Part shown: positions 33,882 through 39,465 of the stretch, in pieces
How the letters are laid out: each line of letters begins with the position of its first letter
Numbering within the stretch: position 1 is the first letter of the stretch
From: a virus
IMG/VR virus record: IMGVR_UViG_3300035492_000103
Coordinates: 10,019 to 74,018 of that record
Length of the DNA: 64,000 nucleotides
Direction: 5' to 3' (one strand)
Translations under genes and position numbers: made by a program
Notes under the pieces: generated by a model
The model's input: the letters and a program-made list of their open reading frames with translations, nothing else
What the model was told of the DNA's origin: nothing
Database searches by the model: none

Positions 33882-34118
33882 TCACTTGTCTACACTTTCA
33901 TGCAACATATTTACAGAAATTCTGTGCCACATCTTTTCTGTTGCAATAACAAGAATCGTGTTTTCTATGAATTCACGTAACTCATAATGGTCGATACATT
34001 CATCTATAGAACCAGGAAAAGTTTTAACAAGATTTGTATTACCAAACTGTATCATAAGACCTGTTCTAGCTATGAACTTATCGTGTTCATTTGGATATTG
34101 ATTATCAGACATTTTCAA
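33882..34118 (-). CDS. Hypothetical protein
   Basis: 78 aa in operon. Confidence 0.5.
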   Translation of the reverse strand: MKMSDNQYPNEHDKFIARTGLMIQFGNTNLVKTFPGSIDECIDHYELREFIENTILVIATEKMWHRISVNMLHESVDK

Positions 34119-34407
34119 TAGTCTTCAATACTACATTAATATGAAATCTGAATTTGTAGATCATCATACGCTCTTTACAGTGGCAAAACATACAACCTTT
34201 ATCTGCACCCATACAACCACATGCCATCACTAGTGGTTCTTTCATGAAATCATATACCAAATTTGATTTTTGTTTTTCTTTGACTCTTTGAACTAGGTGA
34301 TTCAAAGTGTTTGTGTCAATAAGATATTCTGATTCTGGAATATTTTGAAGTTGACAACTTTCGATATGATTTGTAAATAATTTTGAAGCGATTTCAAATT
34401 CTGTCAT
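34105..34407 (-). CDS. Hypothetical protein (Cys cluster)
   Basis: ACGCMG...CMFCHC; shared leader. Confidence 0.6.
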   Translation of the reverse strand: MTEFEIASKLFTNHIESCQLQNIPESEYLIDTNTLNHLVQRVKEKQKSNLVYDFMKEPLVMACGCMGADKGCMFCHCKERMMIYKFRFHINVVLKTIENV

Positions 34408-34476
34408 GATATAAATTCCTTCACTTTAAAATGCTTAAACTGGAGCGTTGAAAGGTGTTATCAACGCAAATAATAT

Positions 34477-34758
34477 TTATGTTGGAAGTTTGACTAAGAA
34501 CTCAACAGTTTCTTTGTCAGAAATTTTCTTCTTAGATAAATTATACACTACTTGTATTGGTACATAATACCCGTACAACACAAAGCCAGTAACATTGTCT
34601 TTTTCTAAATCGTACTGTTCATGTTCCTTTAATGACATCAACGAGTCGATAATAGTTCTAACAATAAAATCTTCACGCATTACCCAGCCGATGTTAACAC
34701 GCATTGTTTTAACGATAATATCACCAGACAATAAATCACATTTCGACGGTAGGCTCAT
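34477..34758 (-). CDS. Hypothetical protein
   Basis: 93 aa ORF. Confidence 0.5.
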   Translation of the reverse strand: MSLPSKCDLLSGDIIVKTMRVNIGWVMREDFIVRTIIDSLMSLKEHEQYDLEKDNVTGFVLYGYYVPIQVVYNLSKKKISDKETVEFLVKLPT

Positions 34759-34795
34759 ATTTAAATACCATATCTACAGTGCTTGTTTTATAAAA

Positions 34796-34871
34796 TGGCA
34801 GGGTGACTAGGATTCGAACCCAGATCACACGGCTTTGGAGGCCGGCATAATAACCATTATACTATCACCCT
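34796..34871 (-). tRNA. tRNA-Trp(CCA)
   Basis: Cloverleaf, AGGGTGA/TCACCCT, encoded CCA. Confidence 0.92.
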
Positions 34872-34872
34872 A

Positions 34873-34954
34873 TGGCGCACCAGGAGGGACTCGAACCCCC
34901 ATACTCCAATTACTCGATTAACGACGGTTTAGAAGACCGTTGAGATACTGGCGC
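34873..34954 (-). tRNA. Atypical tRNA-Arg(TCT)-like RNA lacking a canonical D arm
   Basis: Acceptor, anticodon and T arms plus CCA; only 7 nt between acceptor and anticodon stems; 23-nt variable region. Confidence 0.7.
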
Positions 34955-34958
34955 ATTT

Positions 34959-35110
34959 AACAGACCTATACCATCTTTAAGTCAATTACACTGGAGTCCG
35001 AGAACATTTTATGTAATCTAAATTTGCAGAGCTATCAACCTCTGTTTTACAATGATGGATTAACTCCATCTACCGTTTAGTATGTTTTTTGTTGCCGCAA
35101 TAGGTCTTTG
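34959..35110 (-). ncRNA. Y-RNA-like family member 1 (three internal hairpins)
   Basis: AGACCUAU/AUAGGUCU stem, A.G mismatch, UGCGGCAAC+A6. Confidence 0.65.
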
Positions 35111-35156
35111 AAACTGTATATTAAACTAAACTTGTAACAAAGTAAACAATTATTTT

Positions 35157-35231
35157 TGGAGCATCTAATCGGATTCGAACCGATAATTCCGACTTGGAAG
35201 GACGGCGTGTTACCATTAACACCATAGACGC
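35157..35231 (-). tRNA. tRNA-Gly(TCC)
   Basis: Cloverleaf plus CCA. Confidence 0.93.
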
Positions 35232-35277
35232 ATATTACATGTTCGGCGTTTATATTTAAACTGCCGTGGTAATTAAA

Positions 35278-35383
35278 TTTGTACTTAGCGTGGAATCGAA
35301 CCACTTACTCATCCAGAGCCCAAACAGGAATCGAACCTGTATAACGATAGCTAACCGTGCACCCAATGCTTACCAAGTACAAA
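35278..35383 (-). ncRNA. tRNA-like RNA with two T-arms
   Basis: Terminal stem GUACUUGG/CUAAGUAC; ACAGG-UUCGAUU-CCUGU and GUGG-UUCGAUU-CCAC. Confidence 0.6.
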
Positions 35384-35385
35384 AT

Positions 35386-35473
35386 TGGAGGAAAGTGTAG
35401 GATTCGAACCTATGGAGCTGTTACACCCTAGTGGTTAGCAACCACCTGCATTCGTCCACTCTGCCAACTTTCC
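35386..35473 (-). tRNA. tRNA-Ser(GCT)
   Basis: Cloverleaf with long variable arm plus CCA. Confidence 0.93.
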
Positions 35474-35595
35474 AGATTTCGATGTTATATGAACAATTTT
35501 ACCAGATTTCCGAGCCTTTATATAGGCATCTGCTAACTTTTTCATGTTTTCTTTTTTTTTTTCTTTCTAGTACTGTCATATAATTCTCGGTATTT

Positions 35596-35683
35596 TGGTG
35601 GGGATGGAGAGACTCGAACTCTCACGCCCATTACAGGCCACGGAGTCTAAATCCGTGATGACTACCAATTCCAACACATCCCC
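35596..35683 (-). tRNA. tRNA-Leu(TAG)
   Basis: Cloverleaf with variable arm plus CCA. Confidence 0.93.
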
Positions 35684-35691
35684 GAATTTTT

Positions 35692-35798
35692 TGCAGTACA
35701 AAATCTCAATCTTGACTAAGCGAACTTTGCTAGAAGCTACATTGGCAGCTAATGTACACTCGCACTTCCGAACCCTAGCTCAGCTTAGTTATACTGCA
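35692..35798 (-). ncRNA. Unknown structured RNA
   Basis: Nested stems UGCAGUA/UACUGCA, ACUAAGC/GCUUAGU, GCUAG/CUAGC; no ORF. Confidence 0.45.
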
Positions 35799-35809
35799 TA
35801 ATGAGCTAA

Positions 35810-35920
35810 TTAAACACCTGTGAATCCGTTAGTACAAACCCAAGTTTCATCTTCAAGACCACAGTCTTGTTCGACATTGAAACTGCCGCCACCAACATGG
35901 ACAGGTTTAATAATTGTCAT
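35810..35920 (-). CDS. Small peptide (36 aa)
   Basis: MTIIKPVHVGGGSFNVEQDCGLEDETWVCTNGFTGV; directly after 46-aa ORF. Confidence 0.45.
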   Translation of the reverse strand: MTIIKPVHVGGGSFNVEQDCGLEDETWVCTNGFTGV

Positions 35921-35928
35921 CGTACTGC

Positions 35929-36069
35929 TCATCCCATGTACCCTTCTGATTTAGTGACACCACCAATTTTAATAGGAGATTCGGTATTGGAAATACCTTC
36001 ACCCGTACCGACTCCTAAAAGCTTTTCATCCCATACACCGTGAATATCCCAAATACCTACACTCTTCAT
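35929..36069 (-). CDS. Small Gly-rich peptide (46 aa)
   Basis: MKSVGIWDIHGVWDEKLLGVGTGEG...; GAGGGA RBS. Confidence 0.5.
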   Translation of the reverse strand: MKSVGIWDIHGVWDEKLLGVGTGEGISNTESPIKIGGVTKSEGYMG

Positions 36070-36090
36070 GACTTGTCCCTCTTATTAAAC

Positions 36091-36166
36091 TGGTGGACCG
36101 TACCGGATTCGAACCGATGACTTCTCCGTGCAAGGGAGACGTTTTACCAATTATCACTAACAGCCC
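36091..36166 (-). tRNA. tRNA-Ala(TGC)
   Basis: Cloverleaf, G3.U70, CCA. Confidence 0.93.
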
Positions 36167-36181
36167 AAATTATTCATAAAT

Positions 36182-36258
36182 TGGCAGGAATGACGAGATT
36201 CGAACTCGCGGCCTCCACCGTGACAGGGTGGCGTTCTAACCAACTGAACTACATTCCT
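36182..36258 (-). tRNA. tRNA-Asp(GTC)
   Basis: Cloverleaf plus CCA. Confidence 0.93.
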
Positions 36259-36265
36259 ATAAATC

Positions 36266-37005
36266 TGGAGGGCAGTCTGAGACTTGAACTCAGTGGCTTA
36301 AAAGACACCGAGTTCTTTCAAATCGCTCTCAAACAAGACTTTTAAAGTTCTATAAGAAGGAAACTGTGACCATTTGGCGGCATCTTTCTCTGTCTTATAT
36401 CCCTTTATTTCTATATACTCATCAGAATCTACTAAGTAAAAGTCTGGAGTATATCTTCTAATCTTACCTTCAAACTCGTATGGAAAAGAATCCTTACATC
36501 TTTGCCATTTAATTTGATTTTTATCTAACCATTTAGCGTATTCAAGTTCCCATTTACCATGAAGGTCTACTCCATTATAGTTGTAATGCAGGTTTTTAGT
36601 AAGTGAAACATGCCATTCTCCACTTTCAACCCTTTTGGCAATAGTCGCTTTACGTTTCGCCTTTGTTTCCTCAGATTCATTAGCATTACGTTTTTTGGTG
36701 CCTTCCGATAGTTTCTTTCTGGTTTCATCAGACAGTACATAACTATCATTAGACCATTGATTCACAACACCATTTTCTTTTCTAAGTTTTGCTATCTCTT
36801 TTTGCTTCTCAATATCTTGAAATGGTGTAAATTGTCTTTCAGGATTGAGCTTACAAAATCTTTGATGAGCACTTAAAGAATTGTTATTTTTACATTCTTT
36901 CATACAAAACTTACATTTCATAACAGTAGTCACTTTTGGTAAATACTATTATTTATAAAATATAAGTTTTTAGTCTGCTGCTCTAACCAACTGAGCTAAC
37001 TACCC
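36266..37005 (-). pseudogene. tRNA (probably Lys) split by endonuclease insertion: 5' half 36972-37005, 3' half 36266-36297
   Basis: GGGTAGT pairs ACTGCCC-T-CCA; D arm in one half, T arm in the other. Confidence 0.8.
36298..36921 (-). mobile_element. Putative homing endonuclease (Zn finger + NUMOD3-like + PD-(D/E)XK)
   Basis: CKFC...H.RFC, ETRKKLSE repeats, YTPDFYL..EYIEIKG; own TATAAATA at 36950-57. Confidence 0.8.
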
Positions 37006-37014
37006 ATTAAAATC

Positions 37015-37102
37015 TGGCAGAAGATGTGAGATTCGAACTCACGACCCCCGAAGGAGTGCCGGTTTTCAAGACCGGTGCCTTAAACCTCTCGGCCAATCTT
37101 CT
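37015..37102 (-). tRNA. tRNA-Ser(TGA)
   Basis: Cloverleaf with variable arm plus CCA. Confidence 0.93.
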
Positions 37103-37103
37103 T

Positions 37104-37195
37104 TGGTGGGTGCGGTAGGATTCGAACCTACAATGTTTACCCTGTGGGAACGGATTTACAGTCCGTTGCAACACCACCGTCGTTGCCGCACACCC
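37104..37195 (-). tRNA. tRNA-Tyr(GTA)
   Basis: Cloverleaf with variable arm plus CCA. Confidence 0.9.
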
Positions 37196-37202
37196 TTAAA
37201 CT

Positions 37203-37278
37203 TGGTGGAACCGACTGGAGTCGAACCAGTGACCTTTCCCTTATCAAGAGAATGCTCTACCTATTGAGCTACAGTTCC
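37203..37278 (-). tRNA. tRNA-Ile(GAT)
   Basis: Cloverleaf plus CCA. Confidence 0.93.
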
Positions 37279-37347
37279 GTCCATCGATACTAACGATTCA
37301 TTGGACTTACAGTATGTCACGCCAATTACTGAGCATCAATGGGTGTT

Positions 37348-37422
37348 TGGTACACCATAGCGGAATCGAACCGCTCTTGCAAGGTTGAAAACCTTGAGTC
37401 CTAACCGATAGACGAATGGTGC
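37348..37422 (-). tRNA. tRNA-Glu(TTC)
   Basis: Cloverleaf plus CCA. Confidence 0.93.
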
Positions 37423-37430
37423 ATCAATTC

Positions 37431-37505
37431 TGGTCCGTTGTGAAGGATTCGAACCTTCGTGATCTGCGCCCCAAACGCAGTGGACAACCACTATCCCAAC
37501 AACGG
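37431..37505 (-). tRNA. tRNA-Pro(TGG)
   Basis: Cloverleaf plus CCA. Confidence 0.9.
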
Positions 37506-37515
37506 AAATATATTT

Positions 37516-37589
37516 TGATGCGGGTTGTGAAATCGAATCACATTCTTCTGGCTTATGAGACCAGCAAGATACCTTACCTCCCACCCGCA
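37516..37589 (-). tRNA. tRNA-Met(CAT), initiator-like acceptor, 3' TCA
   Basis: TGCGGGT/ACCCGCA, CTGGT-CTCATAA-GCCAG. Confidence 0.75.
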
Positions 37590-37739
37590 TCAAAATATAC
37601 TTAGAATAAATTTATCGGTCAGAGGTAAGTTACTTCTCACTACACCGTCAAACGGATAACCGAAAATTTATTTATATACCGACAAACCATTTAGATTCTA
37701 CACAAAATTTAACTGGTCACTTCTTGTCGGTATATGTAT

Positions 37740-37768
37740 ATATTAAACTGTTAATTCTACTCTGTCAA
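37740..37768 (-). promoter_or_regulatory. Promoter of the tRNA cluster (TTGACA-N17-TAATAT)
   Basis: -35 at 37763-68, -10 at 37740-45. Confidence 0.75.
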
Positions 37769-37779
37769 CAACTATTTCA

Positions 37780-39180
37780 TTAAATTGTATATCTGTCAAC
37801 ATCTACAACTTTTAACATCATTTCATATGGGTTATATTCTGTTCCACATACTACAGATTTCAACAGAGATGGACTAAAACCAGAAACCAATAGGGCACCA
37901 GTATCATCTTTTTGTACTGGGAAATTATCGTTCCGAGCATTTAGGTTCCAGAATACAACTTGCGGTAAAGTATAACCTTTCTTGGTAAATTCCTTTTTTG
38001 CCCATTCAAAGTTGGTTGAGTTCTTGTTAACATTATAGCCACTAATTCGATTAAATTCCATATCAGAGAAAATCAACAACTGTTCCGGTAAATCTTCCTG
38101 GCTTAATTTGTGTTTCACTGCTGCATCCAAGATTAGTTGGAATGTTGCTTGTAAATTTGTAGAACCACCCCAAGGAGCTGCATAAATTCCTCTGATACGG
38201 TTAGCAAATGTACCTTTAATTTGCATCATCTTAGGACTTTCATCGAAAGTTATAAACTGATCCTTAAAAACACCTTCATTTCGTTCTGCTACATAAAGAC
38301 CTAATGATACCGCAACATCCATACATGAAACTGAACTACCGCCAGCAGAACAATTCATAGATGATGAAACATCAATGACAGGTAAAATCCTAGTCTGTTT
38401 CCCTTCCATGTAATTTGGAAGTGCTTTCCATTGTGCTTCTGCAACAGATTCATTATTAACCATACCATATCTTAATGATTTTACAATATCATAAGGATAA
38501 ACAGCGCCAGCATTGATTTTTGTTTCACCTTTTGATAATGCTTGTTTGTATGCTTCATAACGAACTGCGTCATTTCGATGAAAAGCTGTCATATATCGAG
38601 CAGATGCAACTGATGGTAATTTTGCATAGTCAATTTCTGACCAATTACCAGCAGACATTTTCTGCTCTACAGTATTTGACAAATTCACCAACATTTTACG
38701 TAATGATTTAGGATCCAATCCCATTTTCTTGCGCAGTAAATTAAACATAGGACCTTTGCGAGGTGTCCACTTTGCTGCTAATGCGTTACCTTCCATTAAA
38801 GCATCTGCAGTAATAGAAACAGCTAAATCTTGATACGGTGTATTGATGAACACATGTAAATCATCCCAACGACCAACTTCAACAGTCTTTGCCATAACAC
38901 GGAAAGCATTTTCTTTGTTGATAACCGTCATAACGTTATCACGGAATAACTGTCGTTCACCTGAACCACCACGGATATCACGTGCATGAAATAAAATCTG
39001 ACTTGTCAGTTTTGGATTTTCACCGTATGCTTTCATAACATTATGAGAAATATTCTTTCCACGAGAAGCACCAATTTTGAAAAACAGATCCAGACAAGCA
39101 TCAAGTGTTGAACCATGAGTAACAGCACCATTTTCTGTCAATGACATAGATGTTTGAGTTGCATTGAATAATTTTGACAT
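37780..39180 (-). CDS. TROVE/Ro60-like protein (DUF2828-type) with C-terminal vWA
   Basis: LTENGA, LDLFF, RDIRGGSGER, GRWDDL, AAKWTPR, EAQW, MIDAS DVSSSM, SDMEF, VFWNL, SGFS. Confidence 0.85.
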   Translation of the reverse strand: MSKLFNATQTSMSLTENGAVTHGSTLDACLDLFFKIGASRGKNISHNVMKAYGENPKLTSQILFHARDIRGGSGERQLFRDNVMTVINKENAFRVMAKTVEVGRWDDLHVFINTPYQDLAVSITADALMEGNALAAKWTPRKGPMFNLLRKKMGLDPKSLRKMLVNLSNTVEQKMSAGNWSEIDYAKLPSVASARYMTAFHRNDAVRYEAYKQALSKGETKINAGAVYPYDIVKSLRYGMVNNESVAEAQWKALPNYMEGKQTRILPVIDVSSSMNCSAGGSSVSCMDVAVSLGLYVAERNEGVFKDQFITFDESPKMMQIKGTFANRIRGIYAAPWGGSTNLQATFQLILDAAVKHKLSQEDLPEQLLIFSDMEFNRISGYNVNKNSTNFEWAKKEFTKKGYTLPQVVFWNLNARNDNFPVQKDDTGALLVSGFSPSLLKSVVCGTEYNPYEMMLKVVDVDRYTI

Positions 39181-39224
39181 AACATTTCACTCCATTCGGG
39201 CCCAGGATTAGGCCGTTAAAATTA

Positions 39225-39254
39225 AAAAGCCTAGATATAATAACCTAGGCTTTT
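39225..39254. terminator. Intrinsic terminator
   Basis: aaaagcctag/ctaggctttt. Confidence 0.75.
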
Positions 39255-39273
39255 GTTCATGTAAACACTTTTA

Positions 39274-39465
39274 TTATTTTAATAAATCTAATGAAATAAC
39301 AGATTTACCAGATGAATCCTTTACATCTATTGTTACACCAGTAAAGGTACTTTTTGTTGTGAAAGATAAACCTGTATGTGTACCATTTCCACCGGAAATT
39401 TTTACATTACATTTACCATTATCTTTTACTGTAGCTTCGGTTAAAAAATCTTTAAAACTTTTCAT
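39274..39465 (-). CDS. Putative internal head protein
   Basis: MKSFKDFLTE resembles T4 capsid-targeting sequence MKTYQEFIAE; TATAAATA at about 39487-94. Confidence 0.65.
   Translation of the reverse strand: MKSFKDFLTEATVKDNGKCNVKISGGNGTHTGLSFTTKSTFTGVTIDVKDSSGKSVISLDLLK

Follow-up and report, generated by a model that had tools for sequence, protein, structure and literature searches.

A free-standing, ribozyme-less homing-endonuclease cassette has very probably (roughly 85% in our estimate) invaded and killed the tRNA-Asn(GUU) gene of an uncultured T4-like phage. The locus lies in a window of 64,000 nt that was analysed from IMG/VR record IMGVR_UViG_3300035492_000103, which comprises 106,024 nt with an estimated completeness of 67%. 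The cassette would combine a T4-type late promoter, a translation-silencing hairpin and an ORF for a 207-aa, T7-endonuclease-I-like PD-(D/E)XK nuclease with a CCHC zinc finger. It would begin right after U33 of the tRNA gene and take the place of nt 34-48, which would leave the tRNA a dead relic. The features of the region are, in their order of reading:

37015-37102, minus strand: tRNA-Ser(TGA), upstream neighbour in the tRNA array, called by ARAGORN and partly covered by the insert-less contig of run X4 (see below).
36972-37005, minus strand: 5' relic of tRNA-Asn (nt 1-33) with acceptor 5' strand GGGTAGT, D arm, GCAGA, C32 and U33, from direct reading.
36294-36971, minus strand: putative homing-endonuclease cassette of 678 nt in place of tRNA nt 34-48, skipped by the X4 contig.
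36906-36970, minus strand: long hairpin predicted with RNAfold, the promoter region being paired with the start codon and first codons.
36950-36957, minus strand: TATAAATA, a match to the T4 late-promoter consensus, from sequence reading.
36298-36921, minus strand: endonuclease ORF of 207 aa from ATG 36921 (211 aa from GTG 36933), ending in GTC TTT TAA, with CCHC zinc finger, helical linker and PD..ExK domain.
36266-36293, minus strand: 3' relic of tRNA-Asn with T arm, acceptor 3' strand ACTGCCC, U73 and CCA, from direct reading.
36182-36258, minus strand: tRNA-Asp(GTC), downstream neighbour (ARAGORN; Rfam 72.3 bits), its first 16 nt covered by the X4 contig.

The DNA polymerase of the record shares 56.5% identity with its counterpart in Pseudomonas phage pf16 and about 38% with the enzymes of T4-like cyanophages, and the record was therefore assigned to an uncultured T4-like phage. 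ARAGORN called an array of 12 tRNA genes on the minus strand (34796-37589) and a 13th gene at 42423-42498. No tRNA-Asn is found among these 13 tRNA genes of the window, and the full 106,024-nt record contains the same 13. An Rfam tRNA match adjoining tRNA-Trp (34876-34954, minus strand, 34.2 bits, E 0.00031), which was not called by ARAGORN, may represent a degenerate or unusual tRNA.

Both tRNA halves, the late promoter and the endonuclease ORF of the original prediction were present at the coordinates given there, all on the minus strand. The D arm of the 5' relic has the canonical form by direct reading, the T arm of the 3' relic reads CTGAG-TTCAAGT-CTCAG, and the acceptor strands of the two relics are paired at 7/7 positions, one pair being G.U. 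Both acceptor strands also pair in the minimum free energy fold of the entire 740-nt element. Such perfectly complementary acceptor strands fit a recent insertion and also allow a residual RNA-level role. The cassette has a GC content of 0.32 and is occupied by the ORF over 624 of its 678 nt, with 50 and 4 nt of non-coding sequence, and the T-arm hairpin begins 4 nt past the endonuclease stop codon. As had been predicted, the 3' strand of the anticodon stem is missing, with neither TCTGC nor TCCGC anywhere in the insert. We considered whether TCTAC/TTTAC, a stretch some 30 nt inside the insert, could be the 3' strand of the anticodon stem in a displaced position (perfect in relative L006, 4/5 in the window) and rejected this, as the motif belongs to the cassette hairpin and is missing from other relatives. 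The suggestion that AGAC/GUCU could close the insertion as a giant loop carries no weight, since GTCT occurs 4 times in the insert. With introns allowed, ARAGORN picked exactly 36266-37005, as a 96-nt 'tRNA-Phe(aaa)' with a forced poor anticodon stem; wide intron limits gave many spurious joins between neighbouring tRNAs and were used for hand-checked cases only.

To define the uninterrupted gene, contigs from four public runs were aligned to positions 35900-37500 with a likeness threshold of 85%. The insert-less allele is represented by one short contig of low depth (178 nt, depth 4.2) from a single run, X4, an aquatic metagenome of another study than that of the likely source runs X1 and X2, with a shorter side of 51 nt. 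This contig does not differ from the window in any of 51 letters at 36243-36293 (100%) and shows 4 differences in 112 nt at 36972-37083 (96%). It joins 36972 to 36293, skips 678 nt (36294-36971) and carries 15 other letters there, which on the plus strand read GACCTGCGGATTAAC. The contig reaches into tRNA-Ser(TGA) on one side and into the first nucleotides of tRNA-Asp on the other; it thus covers the same neighbours as in the window and therefore derives from a relative with the same gene order.

Placed between the window flanks, the 15 letters of X4 yielded a 77-nt tRNA-Asn(gtt) in ARAGORN, with one A.C mismatch in the anticodon stem. The broken gene is therefore a tRNA-Asn(GUU) and not the tRNA-Lys that had originally been proposed; the supposed Lys anticodon loop CUUUUAA encodes the conserved C-terminal residues V-F of the endonuclease (V-I in relatives), and the anticodon of the empty allele is GTT. 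The contig bridged both halves into a clean tRNA-Asn(GTT), so that the halves come from one tRNA, a check that had been suggested beforehand. A cloverleaf with GUU anticodon is formed only by the insert-less allele and not by the window copy, from which nt 34-48, i.e. the anticodon, the two next loop bases, the 3' anticodon-stem strand and the variable loop, are absent. The predicted insertion of about 670 nt at the anticodon loop thus held for size and place (678 nt, right after U33) and failed as a pure insertion: judged from the aligned alleles, 678 nt have taken the place of nt 34-48. As these nucleotides are gone from the DNA, no excision could restore a decoding tRNA. The discriminator base of the tRNA-Asn relic is U, where G73 is the usual base in bacterial tRNA-Asn. 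When IMG/VR was scanned with exact patterns of either half of the tRNA and of the uninterrupted version, 0 loci were returned for each, and blastn of the region against cultured phages gave matches to the neighbouring tRNAs only.

The endonuclease ORF belongs to a large protein family. In a large protein collection 350 of 446 candidates were homologous at E<=1e-5, the closest non-self sequence being 83% identical, and PHROG 15137 'endonuclease' matched the window ORF (8.4e-18). An alignment of 38 sequences showed invariance in 38/38 for C3, C6, H19 and C23, which form the CCHC zinc finger, and for E125, P159 and D160, and E171-x-K173; the window protein retains all 36 invariant columns. By sequence and predicted structure, the window protein presents an E...PD...(D/E)xK catalytic motif on a restriction-endonuclease-like fold. 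The original description as a Zn-finger/NUMOD3/PD-(D/E)XK protein was correct with regard to the invariant CCHC and PD..ExK motifs; NUMOD3 was a sub-threshold match in the window protein, as were DUF7487 and TnsA_N, and was found in 2 of 38 members. In the same per-member Pfam scan zf-C2H2_jaz was found in 23, DUF7487 in 20 and Phage_endo_I (PF05367) in 16 of the 38 sequences, the latter at E<=0.01 with a best value of 1.8e-06, while the window protein had no Pfam match at E<=0.01.

A phmmer search of the window protein against PDB sequences gave nothing meaningful (best E 1.2), and a Foldseek search with its AlphaFold2 model (pLDDT 87.7, pTM 0.50) gave no match at E<=0.001. The top row in Foldseek was the catalytic domain of I-Bth0305I (3r3p; E 0.03, probability 0.99), followed by Bax1 and T7 endonuclease I. 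With VIA-align, residues 105-207 aligned to TnsA (Z 7.2), VRR-NUC (Z 6.7) and I-Bth0305I (Z 6.6), and also to Bax1, Vsr and Hjc; TnsA, VRR-NUC, I-Bth0305I, Vsr and Hjc ranged from Z 4.3 to 7.2, and the top row was an unrelated mitoribosomal protein (Z 8.4). These fold matches of the model are middling in strength and agree with the PD..ExK motif. The fold resembles 3r3p, yet the invariant residues read PD..ExK. Comparison with the L006 copy (82.9% nucleotide identity, 207 codons) gave a dN/dS of 0.147, and the endonuclease gene is therefore maintained by selection. On these sequence comparisons the ORF is an intact predicted nuclease under purifying selection.

The protein search retrieved 19 loci from IMG/VR and 27 from JGI metagenomes, which without duplicates and together with three cultured phages and the window made up 34 distinct loci. 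By script, 14/34 loci showed a tRNA 5' half with its end 25-53 nt upstream of the start codon, and by eye one was also seen in L010, L015, L016 and L034. In relatives the last letters of this half are ..ACT (U33), and the late-promoter motif comes next; in many phages the insertion point lies just after nt 33-36 of tRNA genes. Downstream of the ORF, a 7/7-complementary acceptor 3' strand with NCCA was recognised by script in the window, L004, L005, L006, L027 and L030 and by eye in L010. The split layout of L006 is the same as in the window, with a different yet complementary acceptor stem. The 3' side varied: L030 lacks nt 34-36 only and forms a perfect 76-nt cloverleaf once 786 nt are removed, L006 lacks nt 34-43, the remnant starts at about the T loop in L010 and L027, and L008, L011 and L029 have no remnant. 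A common 3' junction of the window and L006 was considered and rejected; the deletions differ, nt 34-48 being absent from the window and AGGTC being kept in L006, and to judge from the two sequences they are probably independent decay events. Identical cassettes are found in L010 and L029 beside different 5' halves. The fixed left junction together with a decaying right side therefore points to a target-site relic, as in spliced exons both sides would be conserved.

Within about 11 nt of the endonuclease stop codon, 16/34 loci carry a complete tRNA-Asn(GTT), positioned anywhere between a 2-nt overlap (L016) and 11 nt downstream of the stop; these loci include L008, L010, L011, L014-L016, L021, L023, L029-L031, L034, L035, L037 and L038. 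An unusual D arm is frequent in the adjoining tRNA-Asn(GTT), and flanking inverted repeats extend its acceptor helix to 12-16 bp in L010 and L030. From this arrangement many cassettes seem to carry a spare tRNA-Asn, which is not present in the window, L006, L007 and L027.

Several further observations were made among the relatives. A tRNA-Asn(GTT) of 84-87 nt with a long, type II-like variable arm, which is unusual for Asn, occurs in L008 (3120-3204), L023 (2671-2757) and L021 (2733-2816). C-terminal endonuclease fragments only (e.g. query residues 101-206, 135-207, 154-207) lie beside tRNA-Asn in L017-L019, L021-L023, L038 and L044; such copies have decayed, as homing endonuclease genes are expected to do at a late stage of their life cycle. 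Distant homologues with 33-41% identity adjoin tRNA-Ser genes in L042 (about 850-1700) and L045-L048, and in L042 the ORF lies between a tRNA 5' half and a Ser(TGA)-like tRNA that is complete, both with the acceptor 5' strand GGAAGAT. Downstream of a 38%-identical homologue in L043 (about 2067-2300), a tRNA with GTA anticodon is apparently broken directly after the anticodon by a short non-coding insert. ARAGORN also called TTA-anticodon tRNAs, which read the stop codon UAA, in phage tRNA arrays of L017-L019 (3380-3454) and L035 (855-926).

Counterparts were also found in cultured phages, where tblastn returned 43 records, all of them less than 60% identical. In Acinetobacter phage AM101 (L005, MH165274.2, 2417-3159) an unannotated tRNA(CAT) is split by the homologue, with a 5' part that ends in ..CTCAT and a 3' part that starts with ATAATCC... 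Megablast of the AM101 region found the insert in 9 records; among the matches listed, 26 of 40 span 293-295 nt with an annotated tRNA-Met/Ile between tRNA-Pyl and tRNA-Cys. The difference between insert-plus and insert-minus versions is 666 nt, a clean insertion. Presence/absence polymorphism at one locus was thus found both with the X4 contig (flanks 100% and 96%) and with the AM101 homologue. In Citrobacter phage CkP1 the ORF extends into the 3' part of a tRNA that resembles Arg(CCT). In Escherichia phage vB_Eco_F25 (L003, OP870144.1, 2450-3209) the ORF carries the annotation 'endonuclease I' and overlaps a tRNA-Arg(TCT) that is intact and unannotated; the stop codon TAA of the ORF consists of the final base of this anticodon plus the next two bases of the loop, and a truncated tRNA 5' relic ending in ..CT-TCT lies just upstream. 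The accessible portion of the report on phages AB-Navy1 and AB-Navy97 (PMC9247103) makes no mention of a tRNA insertion; AB-Navy1 is a cultured phage that lacks the AM101 insert.

The putative expression signals resemble those of T4-type endonuclease genes. According to an excerpt of PMC1524935, TATAAATA is the T4 late-promoter consensus at -13 to -6, and the same sequence precedes the ORF in L006, L007, L008, L010, L011, L016, L027 and L030; we infer that it would be used as a late promoter also in the window. RNAfold gave -21.1 kcal/mol for the 72 nt from 36971 to 36900 that include the hairpin, and hairpins of different sequence occupy the equivalent position in L027, L030, AM101 and CkP1. 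For I-TevI, I-TevII, I-TevIII, SegB and Aeh1 mobE, the available part of PMC2988022 describes a hairpin that blocks translation of read-through transcripts, and late transcripts that start inside the hairpin and are translated. By analogy, the window hairpin would silence translation on read-through transcripts.

On the preferred reading, the enzyme would be active late in mixed infections, where it would meet a co-infecting relative with an intact tRNA-Asn allele and cut that allele in the DNA of the anticodon loop or close to it. Repair of the break would then copy the cassette from the carrier genome, and the carrier, with its own site split, would be immune to the enzyme. The anatomy of the locus, the insert-less allele, the conservation of the nuclease and its recurrence at one insertion point were observed directly; cleavage specificity, homing, promoter use and control by the hairpin are inferred. 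Of the two options in the original prediction, the first, an invasion by a homing endonuclease that killed the tRNA, is supported by the insert-less allele, the intact and constrained ORF, the lack of a ribozyme and the loss of nt 34-48.

Alternatively, the insert might be removed at the RNA level by protein enzymes, i.e. a nuclease and an RtcB, Rnl1 or Rnl2 ligase, to give a working tRNA. The intact acceptor strands, which are paired in the minimum free energy fold, are compatible with such splicing, as is the outer tRNA that is complete after removal of 666 nt in AM101 and 786 nt in L030. We nevertheless regard it as very improbable for the window copy, where nt 34-48 are absent from the DNA and no excision yields an anticodon arm, and the varying decay of the 3' side among relatives is unexpected for spliced exons. 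Neither RtcB nor an Rnl2-type ligase was found in the 106,024-nt record, which at 67% completeness makes this a weak point; in the Rnl1 search of the record the control gave no match anywhere. The rescue by cleavage and ligation that had been envisaged in the original prediction thus finds neither the anticodon and 3' stem strand in the DNA nor an RtcB or Rnl2 gene in the record. In a related scenario the window copy would be a decayed member of an undescribed, widespread and ribozyme-free cassette lineage with a specialisation for phage tRNA anticodon loops, the clean-insertion members of which (AM101, L030) are restored at the RNA level by protein enzymes. We consider this improbable; if true, it would represent a third, enzyme-dependent kind of bacterial or phage tRNA intron. 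For the window copy, splicing by proteins as envisaged for the clean-insertion relatives is impossible. Bacterial tRNA anticodon loops are classic sites of group I introns, one of which encodes the PD-(D/E)XK endonuclease I-Ssp6803I, and this precedent speaks for a self-splicing group I or II intron with an unrecognised ribozyme core. Such an intron can hardly be reconciled with exons that are unable to rebuild the tRNA, with an ORF that takes up 624/678 nt and with the Rfam scans at E<=1, in which none of the 22 matches in window positions 34000-43000 and none of the 29 matches in the four relatives L004, L005, L006 and L030 belonged to an intron family. That no group I core is recognisable had already been noted in the original prediction and was confirmed by these scans. 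The cassette does not lie within a self-splicing intron or an intein, the latter being impossible since the host gene is an RNA gene.

Two other readings concern the tRNA halves themselves. The tRNA might be dead as a decoder and its halves kept for another use: they could serve homing as homology arms, supply RNase P or 3'-processing signals for the release of the neighbouring tRNAs, or stabilise the endonuclease mRNA through a 3' hairpin. Well-formed 5' halves that in many relatives stop precisely at nt 33 alongside decaying 3' sides, the identical cassettes of L010 and L029 beside different 5' halves, and the T-arm hairpin so close behind the stop codon would all fit a retained function. 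The intact flanks (51/51 identical to the empty allele) can just as well be explained by a recent insertion, and retention of the halves appears unlikely to us. Only the missing middle part would favour the idea that the insertion joined halves of two tRNA genes that are unrelated. Acceptor strands that pair 7/7 stand against this, and the X4 contig connects the halves by way of a normal anticodon arm and variable loop, which refutes such an origin unless the contig is chimeric; we give it practically no credence. 

The original prediction had further pointed to a nearby Ro60-like gene in connection with tRNA repair, for which nothing beyond adjacency was found. This gene (37780-39180, minus strand) matches PHROG 850 'RNA-binding protein' (4.5e-153) and contains DUF2828 and DUF7788 with a weak Ro60-vWA match; a search of IMG/VR with the DUF2828 protein gave one relative, cut off at the contig end. 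Upstream of it (39643-39874, minus strand) are two sub-threshold matches to YrlA, a Y RNA-like family (39.1 and 29.6 bits, gathering threshold 69), and near these is a 128-nt tRNA-like match of 40.3 bits, which ARAGORN reads as a tRNA with a 34-nt insert. The Ro60-like gene and the YrlA-like matches possibly form a phage Ro/Y-RNA module.

Among known systems, I-Ssp6803I is a PD-(D/E)XK-type homing endonuclease of a group I intron in the anticodon loop of Synechocystis tRNA-fMet. It shares with the window element the type of endonuclease gene and its location in a tRNA anticodon loop; however, its self-splicing intron keeps the tRNA functional, whereas the window has no ribozyme and part of the tRNA is deleted. 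T7 endonuclease I and I-Bth0305I share with the window family a nuclease core of the restriction-endonuclease-like fold, but T7 endonuclease I is a junction resolvase without zinc finger. I-Bth0305I, as far as described in the excerpted PMC3239194, has a composite EDxHD (Vsr-like) catalytic motif and NUMOD2 repeats; these and its encoding within an intron would distinguish it from the window family with CCHC and E..PD..ExK motifs. Phage T4 SegB, following the accessible sections of PMC2330249 and PMC2988022, is encoded by a free-standing endonuclease gene that likewise lies within a tRNA array of a T4-like phage, targets conserved tRNA-gene DNA as the window enzyme would do, has a late promoter and a start-sequestering hairpin, and is present or absent among related phages. 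The same sections describe SegB as a GIY-YIG enzyme that lies between tRNA genes and recognises a T-psi-C stem-loop motif, whereas the window enzyme is of the zinc-finger/PD-(D/E)XK type and lies inside a tRNA gene at the anticodon loop, destroying the tRNA. Host genes split by a ribozyme-less endonuclease gene are also known from Aeh1 nrdA/mobE and phage 25 gene 43, where, in the part of PMC2988022 at hand, the split protein genes still yield a working enzyme from two polypeptides; unlike these, the window tRNA without anticodon arm cannot decode. In the literature we found no account of an endonuclease gene that lacks a ribozyme and lies within the anticodon loop of a phage tRNA. The window element is most probably a free-standing homing endonuclease gene; its zinc-finger/PD-(D/E)XK family is uncharacterised and would target the anticodon loops of tRNA genes.

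Taken by itself, the window copy is an ordinary outcome, a dead tRNA-Asn. Free-standing homing endonuclease genes are known between phage genes and occasionally split protein genes, whereas here a large family (350 homologues) recurs inside tRNA genes at one structural position, with no ribozyme to render the insertion harmless and with a spare tRNA beside the cassette in many lineages. Such broken genes are overlooked by tRNA finders, and annotators label the ORF as 'endonuclease I' or 'hypothetical'. The enzymes are likely long-site nucleases, whose targets, the DNA of tRNA anticodon arms, can be read from pairs of insert-plus and insert-minus sequences. The tRNA arrays of T4-like phages are battlegrounds of selfish elements, which bears on the gain, loss and shuffling of genes in these arrays.
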